Shown here in pieces: positions 1-40,242 of a stretch of DNA of 64,000 nucleotides; the stretch's first letter is position 1, and the number at the start of each line of letters is the position of its first letter. This DNA comes from an uncultured Chloroflexia bacterium (GTDB lineage Bacteria > Chloroflexota > Dormibacteria > Aeolococcales > Aeolococcaceae): assembly GCA_963793875.1 (NCBI GenBank), contig CAWCBS010000014.1:90088-154087 (forward strand), in the 5' to 3' direction. Under the pieces are notes generated by a model. The model saw only the letters and a program-made list of their open reading frames with translations. It did not search any database and had not been told where the DNA came from. Position numbers and translations under genes: made by a program.

Positions 1-471
1 ACCGCCGCCGAGATCTCGTCGAGGTACTCGATGATCTGGGAGGCCAGGGCGATCAGGGTCGCCGAGGGCATCTCGTGCTCGCGCGCGACCGTGCCCACCA
101 CCTCCTCCCAGACCACCTTGGCGGCCACCCGGTATGCGGAGAGGAGGACGTCGAAGGGGAGGCCGAGGTCGGCCTGCACCGCCCCGGTCTGGGCCAGCCG
201 GTCGAGGTCGCCGGCCCGCGGGCCGCGGCCGTCGTGGAGGCGCCGGACCAGGACCCGCAGCGCGTCCCGGCAGGCGGAGACGATCGAACGGTAGTAGGAG
301 ACGGTGTTGAAGTGCCCCGGCAGGCTGATCTCGGCGGCGATCCGGCGAGCCATCCGGCCCGCGATCGCGTCGGCGTCGGCGAGCAGCCGGGCGGTCACGG
401 CCGGGGGAAGACTGGCCGACTCGACCAAGACCGCCGGTCGCGGTTTGGATACCGTGGCCAACTTGTCCACC
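1..471 (-). CDS. Hypothetical protein, N-terminal ~157 aa only; it runs off the 5' edge of the window and has no recognisable family
   Basis: The minus-strand frame is open from a GTG at ~471 down to position 1. The translation is protein-like (…VDKLATVSKPRPAVLVE…ALASQIIEYLDEISAA). The plus-strand frames here translate to Arg/Ser-rich junk. The gene is divergent from the ferritin-like gene that starts at 504. Confidence 0.4.
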
Positions 472-503
472 TCACACAAAAAGAGCACGGTTGCATCGCC
501 AGG

Positions 504-1343
504 ATGGCGGATGCTTTGGCCATTCTGCACCAGGACACTGGGTTTGTGCTCTACGATGAGCTGTTCGTCAACCTCGAGCGAGCCCGCTGGAACCTGAGTC
601 GCGACATCGACTGGGACGCCATCGAGCCGGAGAAGCTCACCCCGGGGTGGATCTTCGACGTGCGCGAGGTCTGCCTCACCGAGCTGTCGGCCCTCTACGC
701 GACCGAGATGTTCCTGCGCGACTTCTACGCCGACATCGACTTCTGCAGCTTCATCTCGGTGTGGTTCTACGAGGAGATGAAGCATCACCTGGTGCTGCGC
801 AAGTACCTGGAGCGGGTCGGCGAGGTGATCGAGGAGGCCGAGCTGCCAAGGCTTCGGATCAGCTTCGACGAGGGCCCGGCGATCGAGACCCTCACCATGC
901 ACTTCTGCGGCGAGCAGCGCCTGGCCCACTGGTACACGGCCTTCAGCGCCAACGCTCCTGAGCCGGTGCTGCGCCAGATCTTCAAGGTGCTGGCGGCCGA
1001 CGAGCTGCGCCACGGCGCCGCCTACGCCAAGTACCTGCGCAAGGCGGTGAAGAACAAGCCCGAGGTCGTCCCCACCATCCTTCGAATGGCGCTCTGGATG
1101 ATCCGTACCACCAATGACAATCCCAAGCACCCGACCACCATCACCGAGCCCTCGGTGGTCTCGCTGCTCGAGGATCCCCACTACATCCGCCGCATGCTCA
1201 ACGCCTACCTGCCCGGGCGCGACCACGAGGCACCGGTGCAGCGGCGGATCCTGGCGCTCATGTCCGAGCTGGCCGGGACCAAGATCGGCTCGGTTCGCGA
1301 GCTGCTCGCCCAGATCCGGCTGCTCGAGGGGGAGGCCGCCTAG
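504..1343 (+). CDS. Ferritin-like diiron-carboxylate superfamily protein (two EXXH motifs: EEMKHH and DELRHG)
   Basis: The ATG at 504 lies inside the longer track ORF 75..1343, whose upstream part looks like junk. The two E-x-x-H motifs in helical context are typical of diiron 4-helix-bundle proteins. The exact family is not resolved. Confidence 0.55.
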   Translation: MADALAILHQDTGFVLYDELFVNLERARWNLSRDIDWDAIEPEKLTPGWIFDVREVCLTELSALYATEMFLRDFYADIDFCSFISVWFYEEMKHHLVLRKYLERVGEVIEEAELPRLRISFDEGPAIETLTMHFCGEQRLAHWYTAFSANAPEPVLRQIFKVLAADELRHGAAYAKYLRKAVKNKPEVVPTILRMALWMIRTTNDNPKHPTTITEPSVVSLLEDPHYIRRMLNAYLPGRDHEAPVQRRILALMSELAGTKIGSVRELLAQIRLLEGEAA

Positions 1344-2999
1344 CCCCGATCTTTCAGTAGGGGCGGCCGGGAGGTCAACGAGGGGGTCGGAGGCGGTGCG
1401 GGGGCGTCGCCGCCACGGTGAGGACCCCGGTGGTGGTGCCGAGCGAGAGGGCCGGGGCGCTGCCGGGCGCGTCGACGGTGATGCGGGCCACGAACAAGGC
1501 CACGGGTGGAGTTGCCGAAGAGATCGGGTCCGGTGCCACAGGGTGTCGGTGTCAGGCGGCGGGAAGGCTGCGCAATCGCTCGAAGGCCGAGCCGAGCAGT
1601 CGCGCCCACGGCCAGCGGCGGTGCAGGCGCAGGTACAGCCGTCGCCCGCTCCGCACCAGACGGGCAGCGACGTGGAAGAGACAGTAGCGGAGCCGCTTGG
1701 GCTCCCACCGAGCGGCCTTGCCGTCGAGGCAGAGGCGCTGCATCCAGGCGACCAGATCCTGGGCGACGAGCACCAGCTCCAGCCAGACCTCGTTGGCGGC
1801 GAAGTCGCGGAAGGGGAGGTTGCGCAGGCCCGACGCCTTGCCGCAGCGAATGCGGTCCTCCACCCGGGCGTGGGCACGGTGACGCGCCTCCAGAACCGCC
1901 AGATCGGTGTCGGTCTGGTCGGTGATGAACACCTGGAAGCGAAACCCCTCGTGGTCAGTGAAGGAGAGCTGAGCGCCGGGATGAGGCCGCTCCCGCCGGC
2001 AGAGGGCCCGGGTGGCGGTGGGCCAGGCGCTGAGGTCGAGATCGTGGAGCTCGCAGACCGCCGCACCGTCCCGAGGATCGCCGTCCTGGGTGATGGCAGG
2101 GACCCAGGTCTCCGGGGAAACTCCAAGCACGGCATCGCGAACCGGCTCGGTGAGGTCGAAGCCGACGGAGAAGAGGATGCCGCGCTCCCGCAGGGCATCG
2201 AGGAAGTCGTGGGTGGCGCCGGCGGAGTCCGCGCGGGCCAGCATCGGCGGATCGCCGGCACTCTTGGGCGGGAGCTGCTCGAGCGCGGCGTCGAGGACCC
2301 GGATGTGATCAGCGGCATGGTTGGCGCCGGCATTGCCGGGGCGTAGCAGCCCGGCCAGGATCTCGTCAGTCTCGTCCAGGCTGCAGAGCAGCGGATGGAA
2401 GCCGAAGCCGTGCTTGTAGGTGCCGGCGGCGCCCTGCTTCTCCGAGTGGGCGGTGACCAGGGTGGCGTCGAAGTCGAGGGTGATGTGCTCGGGGCGGACC
2501 CCGTGCTTCCAGGCGTGGCCCCGCGCCTGGGCCCGGGCTCGGCGCACCGGGGTGAGGTCGAGATCGGTGCTGAGCGCGTCGATCACCCGCCAGGCGGTGG
2601 GGACCGAGGCCACCTCGCCGAAGAGGTCCGGCTGGTGGTGCAGGACGGTCAGGTCGGAGAGGCAGTCTCCGCCATCGGCGATGCTGACGGCGAGGTCCCG
2701 CAGCACCTCGCCGGGGTCGTGCGCCCGCCGACGCCGCTGCAGGCAGGCGAGCTCCCGAGAGAGCGCCGCGGTCAGCCCCACCCGATCGGCCAGCTCGACC
2801 AGCAGGTAGCTGCCCGCGTGAGAGATCACCCCCTCGCCATCCGCCGTCACCACCGGCCGTGGCCGCTTGGTAGTCTTCATCCTGAAAGTGCCCCCCTCTT
2901 TGGGATCTTCGAGCGTCGAGAACCCGAGTATCCCTTGTCAGGTGGGGCACTTTCTCGTTCCCGCCCCCGGCAACCACCTACCTCAGTGAAAGATTGGGG
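1344..2999 (-). mobile_element. IS1380-family insertion sequence of ~1656 bp with imperfect terminal inverted repeats, flanked by a 4-bp CTAG direct repeat
   Basis: The left end at 1344-1366 (ccccgatctttcagtagg…) matches the reverse complement of the right end at ~2975-2999 (…cctcagtgaaagattgggg), with one 4-nt indel. CTAG sits at 1340-1343 and again at 3000-3003. The length matches IS1380 itself (1665 bp). A single transposase ORF lies inside. Confidence 0.7.
1552..2880 (-). CDS. IS1380-family DDE transposase (442 aa)
   Basis: The N-terminus (…ADGEGVISHAGSYLLVELADRVGL…) is characteristic of IS1380-family transposases. The size is also typical of the family. It is called by family resemblance only. 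Confidence 0.75.
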   Translation of the reverse strand: MKTTKRPRPVVTADGEGVISHAGSYLLVELADRVGLTAALSRELACLQRRRRAHDPGEVLRDLAVSIADGGDCLSDLTVLHHQPDLFGEVASVPTAWRVIDALSTDLDLTPVRRARAQARGHAWKHGVRPEHITLDFDATLVTAHSEKQGAAGTYKHGFGFHPLLCSLDETDEILAGLLRPGNAGANHAADHIRVLDAALEQLPPKSAGDPPMLARADSAGATHDFLDALRERGILFSVGFDLTEPVRDAVLGVSPETWVPAITQDGDPRDGAAVCELHDLDLSAWPTATRALCRRERPHPGAQLSFTDHEGFRFQVFITDQTDTDLAVLEARHRAHARVEDRIRCGKASGLRNLPFRDFAANEVWLELVLVAQDLVAWMQRLCLDGKAARWEPKRLRYCLFHVAARLVRSGRRLYLRLHRRWPWARLLGSAFERLRSLPAA

Positions 3000-3067
3000 C
3001 TAGCGGACCGGCCCGGAGGTTCAGCAGCCCTCGCGGCTGCCGGCCCCGCTTTCGGGATAATCGGTCG

Positions 3068-3352
3068 ATGGCGGATGAGATCCGGGTTCACGCCACCGTG
3101 CGCGGGCGGGTCCAGATGGTGGGCTTCCGCGCCTTCGTGCTCGATCACGCCTGGGACCTGGCGCTGCGGGGGACGGTGGCCAACCGGCCCGACGGCAGCC
3201 TGGAATGCGTCGTCGAGGGCCCGCGGGAGGACGTCGAGAGACTGATTCAATCACTCCGCCAAGGCCCCAGCTCGGCGCGCGTGGACAGCGTCGACGTGCT
3301 GGAGCAGCCGGCCCGCGGGGACCTTCCGCCGATGGCGGTGTCGGCGTGGTGA
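3068..3352 (+). CDS. acyP: Acylphosphatase
   Basis: VHATVRGRVQMVGFRAFV matches the acylphosphatase signature (V-x-G-x-VQGV-FR). The protein is 94 aa. Confidence 0.85.
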   Translation: MADEIRVHATVRGRVQMVGFRAFVLDHAWDLALRGTVANRPDGSLECVVEGPREDVERLIQSLRQGPSSARVDSVDVLEQPARGDLPPMAVSAW

Positions 3353-3560
3353 GCACGCTGCGCTCTGCCGAGCGGATGTCGCAGGGCTGCGCTCTGGGCG
3401 GGGGCAACCTCGGGGCGCGGGTCGAGCCGCTCCGCAACCTGCTCCCCGGCAGCCCCGACCGCCAGGCGGTCTGGCGCTGAGCGACCCGCTGAACGCCGAC
3501 GTCCGTCCGGGCCTCGAGCAGACCCGAGCGCTGGCGCGGGACCACGACCTGGTCGCCCTG

Positions 3561-5018
3561 GTGCGGACGGTCGCGGCCCCGGAGGTGACCGGGCCGCGGC
3601 TGCTCGCCGCGGTGGGTGATCGCTTGGGCGCCTTCCTCTTCGAGTCCGCGAGCGGGGAGGGCGAGTTTGCCCGTTTCACCTTCGCCGGTCTGGCCGGCCC
3701 GGAGCGATTCCGGGTCCGACGGGGGCGCCTGACGCGGCTCGGCGAGGGAGAGCCGGCCGCCCCGGTCCCCTGCCCCGACCCGCTCCGTGCCCTCCAGGAG
3801 TTCACCGCCGGCCCCCGGGTGGCCCTCCCCGACGACCTCGATGTGCCCTTCACCGGCGGCTCGGTCGGACATCTCTCGTACGAGGCGGCGACCAGCTTCG
3901 AGAACGTAGGCCGCCCCGAACGCGATCCGCTCGACCTCCCCGACGCCTGGTGGGGCCGCTGCCTCTCGTGCAGCGTGCTCGACCGGGAGCGCCAGGTCGT
4001 GCATCTGATCACCCACGTCCCCACCGACGGCAACCTGGCCGAGGCCCATGCGGCGGGCGTCCGCCGTCTGGACGCGATGGCGGAGAGCCTGGAGGCCGCG
4101 GTCGCGCCCCCGGTGGCGGTCACCCCCTCCACGTCGGCGCCGCTGCCCGACGCCGCCGCCAACCTGAGCCGCGACGGCTTCATGGCGGCGGTGGCGCGCT
4201 GCCTCGAGTACATCGCGGCCGGGGACATCTTCCAGGTGCAGGTGTCACGGCGCTTCAGCCTCGACTTCCCGGTGTCGCCGCTGCGCCTCTACGCGGCGCT
4301 GCGGGCCGTGAACCCCAGCCCGTACCTCTTCTACCTCCGCACCGACGACTGCGTGCTGGCCGGCACCAGCCCCGAGATGCTGGTCCGGGTGACCGCGGAC
4401 GGGCGGGTCGCGTACCACCCCATCGCCGGCACCCGGCGCCGGGGACGCAGCCCGGAGGAGGACGCGGCGATGGAGCGCGAGCTCCACGAGAGCGCCAAGG
4501 AGCAGGCCGAGCACCTGATGCTCGTGGACCTCGGTCGCAACGACGTGGGCCGGGTCTGCGAGATCGGCAGCGTGGAGGTGAGCGACTACGCGGCGGTGCG
4601 CCGGTACGGGCACGTCATGCATCTGGAGACCTCGATCCAGGGGAGGCTGCGCCCGGGCCTCTCCGCCGTGGACGCGCTGCGCGCCTGCTTCCCCGCCGGC
4701 ACCGTCACCGGCGCCCCCAAGGTGCGGGCGATGGAGATCATCGCCGAGCTCGAGCCGGAGGTCCGCGGCGCCTACGCGGGCGCGGTCGGATACCTCGACT
4801 TCCGGGGCAGCCTGGACACCGCCATCGCGCTGCGTACCGCGGTGGTCCGCCAGGGACGGCTCCACCTCCAGGCCGCGGCTGGCATCGTCGCCGACTCCGA
4901 CCCCGCCGAGGAGGCGCGCGAGATCGACAACAAGCTGCGCGCCCTGGCCATGGCCGCGGAATCGCTCCGCCCGGCTGCAGCTGCGGCAGCGGCGGCGGCG
5001 GAGGGCCCGGCACGGTGA
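3561..5018 (+). CDS. trpE: Anthranilate synthase component I
   Basis: TrpE-family motifs (…SPEMLVRV…HPIAGT…GAPK…) in a 485-aa protein. The start codon is a GTG. The same frame stays open upstream, so the true start could be earlier. Confidence 0.85.
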   Translation: MRTVAAPEVTGPRLLAAVGDRLGAFLFESASGEGEFARFTFAGLAGPERFRVRRGRLTRLGEGEPAAPVPCPDPLRALQEFTAGPRVALPDDLDVPFTGGSVGHLSYEAATSFENVGRPERDPLDLPDAWWGRCLSCSVLDRERQVVHLITHVPTDGNLAEAHAAGVRRLDAMAESLEAAVAPPVAVTPSTSAPLPDAAANLSRDGFMAAVARCLEYIAAGDIFQVQVSRRFSLDFPVSPLRLYAALRAVNPSPYLFYLRTDDCVLAGTSPEMLVRVTADGRVAYHPIAGTRRRGRSPEEDAAMERELHESAKEQAEHLMLVDLGRNDVGRVCEIGSVEVSDYAAVRRYGHVMHLETSIQGRLRPGLSAVDALRACFPAGTVTGAPKVRAMEIIAELEPEVRGAYAGAVGYLDFRGSLDTAIALRTAVVRQGRLHLQAAAGIVADSDPAEEAREIDNKLRALAMAAESLRPAAAAAAAAAEGPAR

Positions 5019-5043
5019 GCGCGGCGGCCACGACCGGCGGGGG

Positions 5044-5685
5044 GTGGCCCCGGTGAACGAGGAGTTCAGCCTTCCCGAGCGCGACCTCGGAGATTCGGTC
5101 CTGGTTGTCGACAACTACAACTCCTTCACCTTCAACCTGGTCCAGCGGCTGGGCGAGCTGGGGGCGCGCTGCGTGGTGGTGCGCAACGACACCGCCACCG
5201 TGGCGGCGATCGGGGAGCGCGGGCCGGCGGCGGTGGTGGTCTCGCCCGGACCCCGGACCCCCGCGCAAGCCGGGATCTCGGTGGAGCTGATCCGCGTGCT
5301 CGGCGCTCGCATTCCCATTCTCGGGGTGTGCCTTGGCCACCAGGCCATCGGGGAGGCGTACGGAGGCCGCGTGGTGCGGGCGCCGTCCCTGATGCACGGC
5401 AAGCTGAGCCAGGTCCACCACGATGGCGCCGGGGTCTTCGCCGGCGTCCCGGATCCTTTCGCGGCCACCCGCTATCACTCGCTGGTGGTGGAGCCCGCGA
5501 GCCTGCCCGCGTCGCTCGAGGTCACCGCCCGCACCGACGATGGGGTGATCATGGCCCTGCGCCACCGGGAGCACCCGGTGGTCGGGGTCCAGTTCCACCC
5601 CGAGTCGATCGGCACCGGCGCCGGCTACCGCATCCTCGAGAACTTCCTGGAGATGACCACGGCACCGCTCGAGGTGAGGCGATGA
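5044..5685 (+). CDS. trpG: Anthranilate synthase component II (glutamine amidotransferase)
   Basis: Class I glutamine amidotransferase with the GVCLGHQ catalytic Cys motif. It lies immediately downstream of trpE. Confidence 0.85.
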   Translation: MAPVNEEFSLPERDLGDSVLVVDNYNSFTFNLVQRLGELGARCVVVRNDTATVAAIGERGPAAVVVSPGPRTPAQAGISVELIRVLGARIPILGVCLGHQAIGEAYGGRVVRAPSLMHGKLSQVHHDGAGVFAGVPDPFAATRYHSLVVEPASLPASLEVTARTDDGVIMALRHREHPVVGVQFHPESIGTGAGYRILENFLEMTTAPLEVRR

Positions 5686-26997: not shown

Positions 26998-27359
26998 GCC
27001 CGCGGCCGTGGCTCCGCGCGGAGCGGCCGCGGTGGCGGCGGGTTGAGGATGCCGCGTCACCCAGCGACGAGCGTGCGCCGGCCCCGGTCGATGGCTCCTG
27101 GTCGCCCTGGCCTGGCCGGCGGCGATACTGGGCCGCTGCTTTCACGTGGCGCTGCAACCGCCGCCGTCCCCAACTTCACCCACCATCGGCTGGGGCCGGG
27201 TGCGGCGGCCGCGTCCGTGGCCCGGTACAATGGGTCACGGTCGCGCTAGACGGGGAGCCAGCGGTGCCCTGTACCCGCAATCCGCTATAGCGGGGTCGAA
27301 TTCCCCACCGAGGGGGCGCGTCGCCGGGTCCGCTCCGACCTCTCCGGTGTTGATGGTTG

Positions 27360-27464
27360 GGTCCTGCGCAGCCCGGGCCCGTGAACCGCGTCAGGTCCGG
27401 AAGGAAGCAGCGCTAAGCGGTCCCCCGGGGGTGCCGCAGTCAACCTGGCCTGAGCCGGGGGACC
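27360..27464 (+). ncRNA. ffs: Signal recognition particle RNA (small 4.5S-type)
   Basis: Exact match to the conserved helix-8 motif GUCAGGUCCGGAAGGAAGCAGC at 27391-27412. Terminal pairing ggtcc…ggacc. It lies upstream of dnaX-ybaB-recR, the usual neighbourhood. The ends are approximate. Confidence 0.7.
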
Positions 27465-27654
27465 GGGTGAGCGCCGGTGCCGTGCCAACGACGTGGGGTG
27501 CGCGACTACTCCCCCTCCCGGGGCGGTGGGAGGCCACCCCCGCGGGCGGCCACAACCGGGCACCTTCGACCCGGCCGATCCGCTCACCGGTGGTCGCGCG
27601 GTTGCCGCCGCCGCCTCCGCCCGGCCGCCCGCCCCGCCAGGACGGGCCGGCCGA

Positions 27655-33601: not shown

Positions 33602-34379
33602 GGGATGAGCTGCGCTCCGCCTCCACTCTTGATTCTCGCGGCCGCACCAGCGGCGGCAACCCCGCTCCTTCATACGTGAATACAAGTCTGCGAATGATCT
33701 TCGTCACCGCCGTACTTCAGCGGTGGTGGCGAGACGGATCCTCTTTGTAATACATGTCAGGTGAACACAAACGCGCGCGACCCCGGCCCCAGGGCCGAGG
33801 TCGATCCCTTCCTCTCATCCCCGGCGTGGCCGTGGATGAGCGCTGAAAAGTGTGAATAGGAAGGTCAAGCTGATAAGGGCGCACGGTGGATGCCTTGGCA
33901 CCAAGGGCCGAAGAAGGACGTAGCGTTGCTGCGATAAGCCTCGGGTAGCTGCTAGCGAGCGTTAATCCGGGGATTTCCGAATGGGGCAACCCACCTGGAG
34001 TCATGTCCAGGTACTCCCGGTTGAATATATAGGCCGGGTAGAGGGCACGCGGAGAACTGAAACATCTAAGTATCCGCAGGAGAAGATAACATCCCCTTAG
34101 TAGTGGCGAGCGAAAAGGGGTGAGCCTAAACCGAGACGGCGTGATAGCCGGCAGGCGTTTCCGTCTCGGGGTCGTGGGACCCTCATGCTCCGCTGCCGTG
34201 GAGCGCAGGAGTTACCAAGTCGTCGCCTAGCTGAACAGTTTTGGAACAGCTGGCCGTAGAAGGTGAGAGCCCTGTACGCGAAAGGCGGACGACCTCCTGG
34301 AGGTGTTCCCAAGTACCACGGAACACGTGGAATTCTGTGGGAATCTGGGCGGACCATCGTCCAAGGCTAAATACCCTTG

Positions 34380-34421
<42 letters not shown>

Positions 34422-35051
34422 CACCCCGGAAGGGGAGTCAAAAGTCCCTGAAACCGTGCGCTTACAAGCCGTGAGAGGGCTATGCCCGTATGGGAATGCC
34501 TGATTGCGTGCCTTTTGTAGAATGAGCCGACGAGTTACTTCAGTGTGGCGAGGTTAAGGGGTAGACACCCGGAGCCGTAGCGAAAGCGAGTCTGAATAGG
34601 GCGTTGTCGCCGCAAGGCGATGGTAGTCGCACTGAGTAGACCCGAAACCGAGTGACCTATCCATGGTCAGGGTGAAGCGCGGGTAAAACCGCGTGGAAGC
34701 CCGAACCGACCCCAGTTGAAAATGCGGCGGATGAACTGTGGATAGCGGTGAAATGCCAATCGAACTCGGATATAGCTGGTTCTCCTCGAAATGCATTTAG
34801 GTGCAGCGTCGTCAACGGGTCTGTCGTAGGTAGAGCACTGAATGGGCTAGGGGCGATCACCTCGTTACCAAACCCAATCAAACTCCGAATGGCGGCAGAT
34901 TTTCTGGCGGCAGTGAGACAGTGGGGGCTAAGCTTCATTGTCGAAAGGGAAACAGCCCAGACCACCGGCTAAGGTCCCCAATCGCAAGCTAAGTGGTAAA
35001 GGATGTCACGATGTCCAGACAACCAGGATGTTGGCTTAGAAGCAGCCACCA

Positions 35052-35082
<31 letters not shown>

Positions 35083-35847
35083 ATGTCATGGCGCCGACAA
35101 TGATCGGGGCTCAAGCTTGCAACCGAAGCCGTGGATGACCCTCCTTCTGGGAGGGTCGTGGTAGAGGAGCGTTCTGTGGGCAGAGAAGCCCGACCGGAAG
35201 GACGGGTGGAGCGTACAGAAGTGAGAATGTCGGCACAAGTAGCGAGAAACGCGTGAGAAACGTGTTCGCCGTAAACCTAAGGTTTCCTGGGCAACGTTAC
35301 TCGTCCCAGGGTCAGTCGGGACCTAAGCCAAGGCCGAAAGGCGTAGGCGATGGACAGTTGGTCAACATTCCAACACCGCCAAAGACAATTCAAGGCGGCG
35401 GGGGACGGGGAAGGATAGGCCTTACGGAGCGATGGTTGACTCCGACGCAGCCAGGTAGGGGGTCGCCGATGAAAGTTGGCGGCAACTCCGAGACGGATGC
35501 CAAGGCACCTAGTGCTGATGGGGCCGATTCCATGCCTCCAAGAAAAGCCCGTACCGCTGGTCTAGGCGCCCGTACCGCAAACCGACACAGGTAGGTAGGA
35601 AGAGGATTCCAAGGCGATCGAGGGAAACGTGGCTAAGGAACTCGGCAAAATTTCCCCGTAACTTCGGGAGAAGGGGAGCCCTTGACGGTGATCGGCCTCG
35701 CGCCGTGAGCTGATGAGGGCCGCAGAGAAAAGGCCCATCCGACTGTTTACTAAAAACACAGGTCTCTGCTAAAGCGTAAGCTGATGTATAGGGGCTGACG
35801 CCTGCCCGGTGCCGGAAGGTTAAGTGGAGGGGTGCAAGCTCTGAAAT

Positions 35848-35891
<44 letters not shown>

Positions 35892-36601
35892 GGAATCGCT
35901 GCCTTAGTAAAATCTGGCTATATGCTGGAACACCCGTGGATCCCGCACTACTAGGCCGAACCGACGTTTGGTATAGTGACAATGTGACGGGTGCGGACAA
36001 TCAGCAGGAAAGGCTCATCGAGCTGGGTTGGGTACTCGGCTTTGTGGACGGAGAAGGTTGCTTCTCCCTCAGCCTGGTGCGGCAGGTAGGCCGCGCTGGG
36101 CGAGTAGGCTACAGGTCGGGGTACCAGATCTTTCATGAGTTCGCAGTGACGCAGGGCGAGAGGAGCATCACGTGCCTCTACCGACTTCGCGAATACTTCG
36201 GAGTCGGATCGGTGATTGTGAACCGACGGTATGACAACCATCGGGAGTGCGTTCATCGGTATGTGGTTCGGCGACGAGACGATCTGGAGGCGGTGATCAT
36301 TCCGTTCTTCAGGGAATACCCGTTGCGGACTGCGAGACGTGAGGACTTCGAGAAGTTCGCGACGTGCGTGGCGATGATGTCGTGTGGACACCACCGCACG
36401 CCGTCCGGATTTGGTGAAGTGATCGGCATTGCGGAGACGATGAACAGACGCAAACCTAGAACAACCATTGGTGAGAATCCTCAGAGGCCATACGCCAGAC
36501 ACCCGGACGGCCCGAGTGAAGATATGGTCCCGTCTGCATGGCGACATGCAGGAGAGGTGCCGGCTCACGGCACCTCCGCCTGGGATACCAGGTAAGAGCA
36601 G
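35892..36601 (+). mobile_element. Group I intron in 23S rRNA at position L1931 (E. coli numbering), 710 nt, encoding a LAGLIDADG homing endonuclease
   Basis: The upstream exon ends …CCUAAGGU and the downstream exon resumes AGCGAAAUUCC, so the exon is restored perfectly when the insert is removed. A 7-bp P1 forms between exon ccuaaggu and the intron internal guide sequence gccttag at 35901-35907, with a U·G pair at the splice site. The last intron nucleotide is G. A P-like element (attgcggaga), Q-like (aatcctcag), R-like (cagacac) and S-like (aagatatggtcc) occur in canonical order at 36427-36530. A P9-like 9-bp hairpin lies at 36556-36578. Confidence 0.75.
35936..36595 (+). CDS. Single-motif LAGLIDADG homing endonuclease (I-CeuI-like family) encoded inside the L1931 intron
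   Basis: LIELGWVLGFVDGEGCFSLSL is a LAGLIDADG motif. The downstream VIIPFFREYPL…DFEKF… segment resembles the I-CeuI family. The protein is 219 aa and the start codon is GTG. The region has 'ttt', 'att' and 'aga' codons and ~55% GC, unlike the host. The C-terminal ~55 codons overlap the intron core elements. Confidence 0.8.
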   Translation: MDPALLGRTDVWYSDNVTGADNQQERLIELGWVLGFVDGEGCFSLSLVRQVGRAGRVGYRSGYQIFHEFAVTQGERSITCLYRLREYFGVGSVIVNRRYDNHRECVHRYVVRRRDDLEAVIIPFFREYPLRTARREDFEKFATCVAMMSCGHHRTPSGFGEVIGIAETMNRRKPRTTIGENPQRPYARHPDGPSEDMVPSAWRHAGEVPAHGTSAWDTR

Positions 36602-36621
36602 AGCGAAATTCCTTGTCGGGT

Positions 36622-36870
36622 AAGTGAAACGAGCCCGTACCGGCTAATATCGGTGAAGCCCTACTGGTAGGCGTGCGGCCGCCAGGGGTGATACCGAGGG
36701 AAGTCACCTCCACTGAGGAGGTTGACCCTGTATCGACTGAGGCCCTAGTGCCAAGGGTTGGTGGAAGTGCGCAATCCGCGCACAATCTAGCCGCCAGCCA
36801 AGACGCCGGTGACTTCCGTGGCGGGAGTCAAAGTTATAGTCAGTGCTACCAGTGATGGTGGATAACCATG
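36622..36870 (+). mobile_element. ORF-less group I intron in 23S rRNA at position L1951 (E. coli numbering), 249 nt
   Basis: The exon reads …CUUGUCGGGU | intron | AAGUUCCGACC, and the exon is restored when the insert is removed. The internal guide sequence gcccg at intron positions 12-16 pairs with exon cgggu (U·G at the splice site). The intron ends in G. A P4/P6-like hairpin gtgcgcAATCCgcgcac contains a Q-like element. An R-like element is tcgactga and an S-like element is aagttatagtcagt. Confidence 0.75.
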
Positions 36871-37149
36871 AAGTTCCGACCCGCACGAATGGCGTAACGA
36901 GATGGGCGCTGTCTCGGCCACGTACTCGGCGAAACTGAAGTACCTGTGAAGATACAGGTTACCCGCAGCAGGACGGAAAGACCCCGTGGAGCTTTACTAC
37001 AACCTGCCACTGAGATGGGGTCTAGCATATAGAGGATAGCTGGGAGACGGTGAAGCGTGGTCGCTAGATTGCGTGGAGTCAACCTTGGAATACCAGCTTT
37101 GCTAGACTTTATTTCTAACCGGGACCGTGATCCGGTTTCGGGACCGTGG

Positions 37150-37182
<33 letters not shown>

Positions 37183-37340
37183 CAAAAGGTAACGGAGGCG
37201 CCCAAAGGTTCCCTCAGCCTGGATGGAAATCAGGCCTAGAGAGTGTAATGGCACAAGGGAGCTTGACTGTGAGGCCTACAAGCCGAGCAGGGACGAAAGT
37301 CGGGCATAGTGATCCGACGGCTCTGAATGGAAAGGCCGTC

Positions 37341-37377
<37 letters not shown>

Positions 37378-37407
37378 GATCTTGCCCAAGAGTTCACATC
37401 GACGGCA

Positions 37408-37449
<42 letters not shown>

Positions 37450-37455
37450 GAGTAT

Positions 37456-37490
<35 letters not shown>

Positions 37491-37966
37491 TACGCGAGCT
37501 GGGTTTAGAACGTCGTGAGACAGTTCGGATCGTATCCGCTGTGGGCGCAGGAGATTTGAGGGGAGCTGACCTTAGTACGAGAGGACCGGGTTGGACGGAC
37601 CGCTGGTGCACCGGTTGTTCTGCCAAGAGCACCGCCGGGTAGCTATGTCCGGATGGGATAAGCGCTGAAAGCATCTAAGTGCGAAGCCCACCCCAAGATA
37701 AGATCTCCCACCGGATTAACCGGGTAAGACCCCAGCAAGACTAGCTGGTTGATAGGCCGCAGGTGTAAGGGGGGCAACCCCTTGAGCTGAGCGGTACTAA
37801 TCGGTCGAGGGCTTGACCTTTCTATCCCACACTCTTCAGCGCAGTGCAGGGCGGCGACCCGCGGGTCGCCGGCGCGATCGTTGTTCGCCCGACATGAAGT
37901 GGGTCCGGAGCCGCGCGTGGCTCTCAGACGCAGACTTGGTTCCTTCTTACGAAAGAAAGGAGATAT

Positions 37967-40155: not shown

Positions 40156-40242
40156 GCCGAGGTGGTGGAATAGGTAGACACGCTAGCTTGAGGGGCTAGT
40201 GAGCGCAAGCTCGTAGGGGTTCGAGTCCCCTCCTCGGCACCA
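40156..40242 (+). tRNA. tRNA-Leu (GAG) with a long variable arm; CCA encoded
   Basis: Acceptor gccgagg / cctcggc. Anticodon stem ctagc / gctag with loop tTGAGGg. 16-nt variable arm. The sequence ends …GGCACCA. Confidence 0.85.

Follow-up and report, generated by a model that had tools for sequence, protein, structure and literature searches.

Group I introns at position L1931 of the 23S rRNA gene, 654–700 nt in length and with single-motif LAGLIDADG open reading frames (ORFs), have been described in Thermotoga, Simkania and Synechococcus (PMC1995217). Cyanobacterial introns at L1917 and L1931 are without P2 and have a complex P5 domain, the ORF of the Synechococcus L1917 intron starts in P6 and enters the core, and ORFs extending into the intron core have been noted earlier for L1931-type introns (PMC1995217). 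The L1951 intron of Coxiella has a length of 720 nt and encodes a 157-aa protein (PMC1995217). Archaeal introns at the large subunit (LSU) site LSU/1931 have been assigned to subgroup IB4 (PMC6125680), and in bacteria of the Candidate Phyla Radiation (CPR), LAGLIDADG_1 ORFs occur at 23S positions 1917, 1931, 1952, 2593 and other sites (PMC11270868). The present analysis concerns a 710-nt group I intron with a LAGLIDADG ORF at L1931, found in a 64,000-nt stretch of contig CAWCBS010000014.1 from an uncultured Chloroflexia bacterium (hereafter the window). An initial annotation of the window had proposed that a bacterial 23S gene is interrupted at L1931 by a group I intron whose ORF is of the single-motif LAGLIDADG type, and this is borne out by the insertion site, by covariation and by a Pfam match.

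Insertion Site in the 23S rRNA Gene

A complete bacterial 23S rRNA gene was identified at 33863–37820 on the forward strand using the Rfam model LSU_rRNA_bacteria (RF02541, 2629.5 bits, full length), in an operon that also holds 16S, tRNA-Ile, tRNA-Ala and 5S genes. The gene has a length of 3958 nt compared to the 2925 positions of the LSU model. Alignment of the region 35850–37150 to this model left exactly two blocks unaligned, one of ~713 nt after ...GGUCCUAAGG(U), also given as ...AACGGUCCUAAGG(U), and one of ~250 nt after ...UUGUCGGGUAAG. By direct reading of the sequence, the last base of exon 1 is T35891 (...AACGGTCCTAAGGT) and exon 2 begins at 36602 (AGCGAAATTCC...), with G36601 standing immediately before AGCGAAAU. 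The first insert therefore runs from G35892 to G36601 (710 nt) with unambiguous boundaries, and an intron-less gene would read ...GGTCCTAAGGT joined directly to AGCGAAATTCC... at this site. The insert follows the U equivalent to Escherichia coli U1931, a numbering that agrees with m5U1939 being the first U of AAAUU. After the second insert the rRNA continues at 36871 (AAGUUCCGACC). The parts of the gene are as follows:

33863–37820, forward strand: host 23S rRNA gene, with exons at 33863–35891, 36602–36621 and 36871–37820 (RF02541 and LSU alignment)
35892–36601, forward strand: intron 1, group I, L1931, 710 nt, following exon U35891 and ending in G36601 (omega-G) (sequence, homology to ORF-less L1931 introns, and covariation)
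36602–36621, forward strand: internal exon of 20 nt between both introns, equivalent to E. coli 1932–1951
36622–36870, forward strand: intron 2, ORF-less group I intron, L1951, 249 nt, ending in G36870 (sequence and RNAalifold)

The initial annotation had placed a 710-nt insert at 35892–36601 after the U1931 equivalent, which sequence and LSU alignment show to be exact to the base. It had also described the gene as ~960 nt too long. This holds for the total (710 + 249 = 959 nt), but 249 nt of the excess belong to the separate intron at L1951, which had gone unrecognized.

rRNA operons are often mis-assembled in metagenome-assembled genomes (MAGs), and the GC content of this operon is ~57% compared to 73% outside it. 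Both points would fit a chimeric operon on an unrelated high-GC contig, or a mis-assembled intron. An artifact of assembly or binning is nevertheless extremely improbable, as this operon, again with an intron at each of the two sites, was also recovered in an independent MAG (L014), low rRNA GC content is normal in a high-GC genome, and the insert boundaries fall on conserved rRNA positions with single-base precision.

Ribozyme Structure of the L1931 Intron

Threading of the window intron on the Rfam model Intron_gpI (RF00028) wrongly placed its 5′ half inside the ORF, and for this reason an ORF-less homolog was taken as the structure guide. This homolog, an intron at the same site in a Dormibacteraeota MAG (L033), matches RF00028 with 74.5 bits (E 4e-19, threshold 50), and BLAST aligns positions 7–124 and 583–667 of the window intron to it with 80% and 86% identity. 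An alignment of 23 L1931 versions was made with the loop interior deleted, the structure was written from the window sequence and its pairs were counted. The following elements were assigned:

35885–35907, forward strand: P1, 7 bp, exon CUAAGGU (35885–35891) with the internal guide GCCUUAG (35901–35907, intron positions 10–16), U35891·G35901 lying at the 5′ splice site
35896–35900 with 36602–36606, forward strand: P10, 5 bp, UCGCU with AGCGA of the 3′ exon (direct reading)
35913–36008, forward strand: ribozyme 5′ half, structure mapped on the 23-sequence alignment, with P3 5′ (35913–35918), P4 5′ (35923–35928), P5 (35934–35936/35994–35996), P5a (35942–35948/35984–35991), P5b (35950–35953/35974–35977, with extension), P4 3′ (36001–36006) and P6 5′ GG (36007–36008)
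36014–36475, forward strand: P6a stem, CUCAUC (36014–36019) with GGUGAG (36470–36475), closing off the loop in which the LAGLIDADG domain lies
36479–36601, forward strand: ribozyme 3′ half, with P6 3′ CC (36479–36480), P7 5′ GGCC (36486–36489), P3 3′ (36494–36499), P8 (36500–36518), J8/7 AAGAUAU, P7 3′ GGUC (36526–36529), P9 (36534–36551), the P9.1 hairpin (36552–36577), the P9.2 hairpin (36579–36592) and the tail UAAGAGCAG (36593–36601)

The intron is laid out as a ~121-nt 5′ part, an endonuclease insert enclosed by P6a, and a ~122-nt 3′ part (9-nt tail included). It is without P2 and has an extended P5 domain.

Across the 23 homologs, 95.3% of the cells of the P1/P3–P9 model are standard pairs, compared to 31–40% in a slid control where partners were moved by 1–3 columns. 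Compensatory change on both sides was found in 35 of the 59 model pairs, and not one of 500 shuffles matched the observed value on any measure. Most of the covariation occurs in P3, P5a, P6a, P8 and P9, with compensatory changes in P5 also, and P4 and P6 are invariant. All six pairs of P6a have changed on both sides among the homologs, and ORF-less relatives have a 21–31-nt hairpin at this position. P1 covaries as well, exon (CAAAGGU) and guide (GCCUUUG) having changed together at locus L008. The sole non-standard pair among the 59 in the window sequence is a C·A in P8. The P9.1 and P9.2 hairpins and the tail were placed from sequence reading alone and stand outside the covariation count, the alignment being poor there. 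An alternative P5 pairing (ACCCG/CGGGU) was rejected, since P5 CCG/CGG together with P5a CCCGCAC/GUG(A)CGGG has compensatory changes. Judged on homology and on covariation among aligned sequences, insert 1 is a genuine group I intron.

Some of the group I hallmarks named by the initial annotation are plainly visible, namely the 7-bp P1 formed by the guide GCCUUAG with an exon ending in U (U35891·G35901) and the terminal G (G36601). Its clustering of the P, Q, R and S elements near the 3′ end has to be given up, as the P4 strands (P and Q, at 35923–35928 and 36001–36006) precede the endonuclease domain. It had further raised the case of an intervening sequence (IVS) that is removed by RNase III and leaves the 23S rRNA fragmented. 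No point in support of this was found, and its likelihood is close to nil: a group I core is present and there is no simple extended stem, the insert lies in domain IV and not at a site of the helix 9/25/45 type, a homolog scores above the RF00028 threshold, and covariation supports P3–P9 with the P3/P7 pseudoknot. In addition, RNase III-cleaved IVS sites match 23IS2 and 23IS4, whereas group I insertions are found at 23IS6–14 (PMC11270868).

A (U)AAG(R) motif located 4–8 nt before the intron end (window 36593–36601) is conserved in all of the L1931 homologs. It matches part of the 5′ exon (CUAAGG) and is complementary to CUUA of the internal guide, and may represent an alternative pairing that competes with P1.

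The 3′ terminal base of the intron is A in most L1931 relatives, including most of the Dormibacteraeota loci. A terminal G is found in the window and in L014, L006, L011, L016 and L017. Shifting the boundary to restore a terminal G in relatives that start with AG works only trivially, and L001, L002, L005, L007, L008 and L022 are not shiftable, so that the terminal A is real there. Going by the title of their 2007 article on Coxiella, Raghavan et al. reportedly described an intron without the canonical terminal G, which would be a precedent for the terminal A.

The LAGLIDADG ORF and Its Overlap with the Ribozyme Core

The loop closed by P6a holds the domain of a single ORF:

35936–36595, forward strand: LAGLIDADG ORF, 219 aa, start GTG 35936, stop TAA 36593–36595, single-motif, with the domain at ~aa 28–176

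An alternative start, GTG 35984, is the conserved start in several relatives. Residues 34–144 match Pfam LAGLIDADG_1 (PF00961) with an E-value of 9.7e-17 and 62.2 bits against a cutoff of 23.1. One domain copy is present, with the motif LGFVDGEGCF and the metal-binding acidic residue E40. This residue, at the catalytic position, is invariant among 19 aligned homologs, and Q73 is nearly so. A 219-aa single-motif ORF with GFVDGEGCF had been given at exactly these coordinates by the initial annotation, and the Pfam score supports its identification. The dN/dS ratio (nonsynonymous to synonymous substitution rates) over the domain is 0.13, both against L014 and against L001, and therefore the ORF has been under purifying selection.

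A search of the PDB gave as best matches (E down to 2e-25) single domains of I-PanMI, I-AabMI, I-SmaMI and I-OnuI, with 85–93 bits for the I-PanMI, I-SmaMI and I-OnuI domains. The 170-aa single-domain entry 5gkk is also among the best matches (E about 1e-24); a literature search on 5gkk and on I-CpaI found nothing. The ORF had been likened to the I-CeuI family, and this assignment was not upheld. I-CeuI, whose sequence was validated against PDB 2ex5 before comparison, shares 20% identity with the ORF over 152 aa (42 bits pairwise) and is absent among the 60 of 67 PDB matches listed. The resemblance is at superfamily level only, that of a distant relative. For I-CreI, a 64-residue match was obtained with a provisional query sequence.

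The ORF is read in part from ribozyme sequence. GTG 35936 overlaps P5, and the P5a 3′ strand opens with GTG 35984. P5a 3′, P5 3′, P4 3′ and P6 together encode the N-terminus (…ADNQQER), the invariant peptide ADNQQER corresponding to the invariant RNA UGCGGACAAUCAGCAGGAAAG (P5′, P4′, P6). At the other end, the C-terminal ~43 residues (after ~aa 176) read P6a 3′ through P9.2, with the stop codon 6 nt before the 3′ splice site. Within this tail, at 36466–36510 (residues ~177–191), the frame differs from that of the relatives for ~15 codons (IGENPQRPYARHPDG compared to LIRILRDHTPDPET) and rejoins it at EDMVPSAWRHAG. This frame difference covers P6a′–P7–P3′–P8. The tail is therefore not constrained as protein, and it is probably a by-product of stop-free conserved RNA.

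Proposed Splicing and Homing, and Competing Explanations

We consider it very likely that the element is a P2-less L1931 group I intron with a LAGLIDADG homing endonuclease gene (HEG) in its P6a loop, and that splicing, homing and dual coding take place as proposed here. The intron would be transcribed inside the pre-rRNA, where the exon end CUAAGGU would pair with the guide GCCUUAG to form P1, with the U·G pair at the cleavage site. External guanosine would then cleave after U1931, P10 (UCGCU with AGCGA) and the terminal G36601 would position the 3′ splice site, and exon ligation would restore the H69–H71 region of the 23S rRNA. The L1951 intron would be spliced from the same transcript, across the 20-nt exon. 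The ORF product, most likely a homodimer, would cut intron-less 23S rDNA at L1931, and repair would copy the intron into the cut site. Splicing itself, endonuclease activity and current mobility are predictions read from the sequence.

A number of observations speak against this proposal. In the covariance-model check suggested by the initial annotation, the window intron itself scores 24.1 bits on RF00028 (E 0.0012), below the curated threshold of 50 that the L033 homolog at the same site exceeds; the low score is due to the 450-nt loop insert. A single-sequence minimum free energy (MFE) fold of the ORF-deleted intron recovers 13 of the 55 nested model pairs (z = -4.2), although such a result is uninformative for a tertiary-constrained fold. 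On reading the sequence, no obvious Shine-Dalgarno motif was seen at either candidate GTG start. The ORF shares ~80 nt with the 5′ core and ~120 nt with the 3′ half (P6 3′ to P9.2), and therefore translation and folding must compete. The L1931 intron of Simkania is said to remain unspliced, to judge from the title of the 1999 article by Everett et al. Finally, a family lysine (RTAK, column 134) that is at least 90% conserved in the 19 homologs is arginine in the window only (codon 36335–36337), and endonuclease activity could therefore be impaired.

This last point bears on the possibility that the intron is competent for splicing with an ORF that is inactive as a nuclease, either decaying or retained as a maturase, the element being fixed and immobile in its lineage. 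Besides the arginine found in place of Lys134 in the window alone, the ORF tail is frame-shifted relative to its relatives across P7–P8, and the frameshifted HEGs of loci L016 and L017 and the many ORF-less relatives fit a cycle of gain, decay and loss. However, the reading frame is open across the entire domain, both E40 and Q73 are kept, and dN/dS is low; the change from Lys to Arg is conservative, and the residue is only a candidate for the equivalent of the catalytic Lys. An inactive nuclease is on balance unlikely, though it deserves to be taken seriously.

The title on Simkania is the sole same-site precedent for an intron that stays unspliced in mature 23S rRNA, which we regard as very improbable for the window. 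The window intron retains all of its splice signals, namely the U·G of P1, P10 and the terminal G, and compensatory change in the core helices implies that a functional ribozyme is selected for. Moreover, the H69–H71 bridge region could hardly accommodate two inserts totaling 959 nt.

The Second Insert at L1951

The boundaries of the 249-nt insert are the sole placement that gives an exon-final U and an intron-final G, and its P1 pairs exon CGGGU with the guide GCCCG. No RF00028 match was found in it at E ≤ 10. Homologs of this insert occur at L1951 in eight loci, and an RNAalifold model from 8 sequences (the window and 7 homologs) has compensatory changes in 31 of 73 pairs. This model contains a long-range P3 (CCGGC with GCCGG), P4–P6, P8, J8/7 AAGUUAUAGUC and P9, and two hairpins resembling P7.1/P7.2 lie between GACU (P7 5′) and P3′. 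The insert is thus an ORF-less group I intron, probably IA-like by its modeled architecture. The L1951 intron of locus L012 has a length of 689 nt and carries a LAGLIDADG ORF in its P8 loop.

Distribution and Origin of the L1931 Introns

Database searches with the ORF product returned 3,923 protein homologs, all environmental, the best having 62–64% identity. A scan of species-representative genomes with the same protein gave 36 loci, all of them within 23S rDNA, and an L1931 insert could be mapped by means of conserved exon blocks in 29 of these. The inserts measure 638–851 nt with an ORF or 253–333 nt without one. Their host MAGs are labeled Dormibacteraeota, Chloroflexi/Chloroflexia, Solirubrobacterales/Actinomycetes, Planctomycetia, Ignavibacteria, Bipolaricaulota and Patescibacteria, so that the same site is occupied across at least six phylum-level MAG labels. 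The patescibacterial loci L003–L005 and L008 have homologous L1931 introns with 43–54% amino acid identity. An Acidobacteriaceae-labeled locus (L021) also encodes a relative, its insertion site being unmapped to L1931. The view that such introns are rare and would be unusual for a high-GC lineage is contradicted by this number of homologs and by the L1931 loci in Dormibacteraeota, Chloroflexia, Actinomycetes, Planctomycetia and Patescibacteria MAGs. In the literature searched, coverage of which was incomplete, no rRNA introns were described for Dormibacterota.

Versions with an ORF, without an ORF and with a frameshifted ORF coexist, the ORF-less ones being common. In L016 and L017 (Actinomycetes/Solirubrobacterales MAGs) the ribozyme parts are intact and the frameshifted HEGs look like decaying genes. 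The L1931 family thus shows the usual signs of an invasion–decay–loss cycle.

An extra intron at L1917, 14 nt upstream of L1931, was seen in Dormibacteraeota MAGs (L018, L020, L023–L029, L031, L033 and L034) and also in L011, L012, L022 and L035. In several of these 23S genes, ~35 nt of exon are interrupted by two or three introns. With 46.8 bits on RF00028, the L1917 intron of L033 stays slightly under the threshold.

The closest genome by 23S exons is L014, an 'uncultured Chloroflexia' MAG, at 99+%, followed by Dormibacteraeota MAGs at 88–95%, which indicates that the host is a high-GC bacterium related to Dormibacterota or Chloroflexota-labeled MAGs. Horizontal acquisition had been argued from an intron of ~55% GC in a genome of ~72% GC. 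The intron has a GC content of 57.9% and the 23S exons one of 56.8%, and as these are equal the GC-based argument for a foreign origin fails. The GC content at third codon positions (GC3) of the endonuclease domain is 0.69, compared to 0.86–0.94 in those host ORFs that show the high-GC3 pattern expected of them, and this codon signature does support a foreign origin of the ORF.

The window is collinear with L014 (32958–38090 with positions 1–5135), from the 3′ end of the 16S gene through the 5S gene of the operon. Identity to L014 varies along this region:

23S exons: 99.4–99.5%
Spacers: 92–94%
Intron 1, 5′ ribozyme part: 95%
Intron 1, endonuclease region: 72.8% (proportion of synonymous differences, pS, 0.62)
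Intron 1, P6′–P9: 84%
Intron 1, P9.1 to the end: 60%
Intron 2: 86.9%

Relative to the spacers of its own operon, the HEG has ~four times the divergence. Simple co-descent is hard to reconcile with this divergence, which suggests that a different donor may have replaced or re-supplied the HEG and the 3′ part. This argument is weakened by the finding of no similarity to L014 downstream of the 5S gene, so that it presumes that the spacers track host divergence. Either the genomic surroundings of the operon differ between the two, or its flanks are unrelated.

A wider proposal is put forward tentatively, and we are somewhat doubtful of it. The window may sample a large pool of L1917, L1931 and L1951 introns among soil phyla, including high-GC Dormibacterota-like and Actinomycetota lineages, in which the HEG and the 3′ half are exchanged between hosts with near-identical operons and the core-encoded N-terminus couples mobility to the splicing state. 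Such an exchange would, if true, account for the mosaic divergence, with identity of 95% for the 5′ ribozyme, 73% for the HEG and 60% for the 3′ tail. With the start and N-terminus of the endonuclease encoded by the P4–P6 core, translation and folding would likewise be mutually exclusive. A pool of this kind in soil phyla was not described in the literature searched.

Elsewhere in the window, a large (Bacillus-type) signal recognition particle (SRP) RNA is found at 27241–27505 (178.5 bits), upstream of the rRNA operon, and a tRNA-Leu(GAG) at 40156–40242.

Comparison with Known rRNA Introns

In all respects intron 1 fits the class of L1931 rRNA introns already known to carry single-motif LAGLIDADG genes. 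By their published descriptions, the introns of Thermotoga, Simkania and Synechococcus are alike in host gene, site and similar length, and this type shares with the window a single-motif LAGLIDADG ORF in a peripheral loop, the lack of P2 and a complex P5. The window differs from these in its high-GC host lineage, in the presence of a second intron at L1951 and in its ORF, whose greater length (219 aa) results from reading on through all of the ribozyme 3′ half. The window case leaves the understanding of the workings of these elements unchanged. What is new here is the host range, the combination of L1931 and L1951 on either side of a 20-nt exon, and how far ORF and ribozyme overlap.

To the hosts of L1931 and L1951 introns the window adds one that is high-GC, non-CPR, non-thermophile and non-intracellular. 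Together with the related loci, it suggests that soil bacteria carry rRNA introns far more often than the few classic cases imply. As the two introns place 959 nt in the 23S gene, rRNA annotation, primer and probe design, and rRNA-based binning can be expected to misbehave for this lineage. The 20-nt exon serves both P10 of the first ribozyme and P1 of the next and is a compact natural case for coordinated splicing. The ORF that overlaps both halves of the core is likewise a compact natural test case.

I-CeuI of the Chlamydomonas chloroplast 23S gene (PDB 2ex5) is single-motif like the window ORF, but its low identity sets it apart. I-CeuI recognizes a site in this same part of 23S rDNA, and its intron is inserted at L1923, not at L1931. 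The CPR insertions occur at the same sites and belong to the same Pfam family as that of the window, whose host is not a member of the CPR. Coxiella resembles the window in having two group I introns in a small region of domain IV around a micro-exon (34 bp in Coxiella and 20 nt in the window), one with a LAGLIDADG gene and one ORF-less. The two differ in the sites occupied, which are L1917 and L1951 in Coxiella and L1931 and L1951 in the window. They also differ in the position of the gene: in the window the ORF lies in the upstream intron and the L1951 intron is ORF-less, whereas in Coxiella it is the L1951 intron that encodes the protein.

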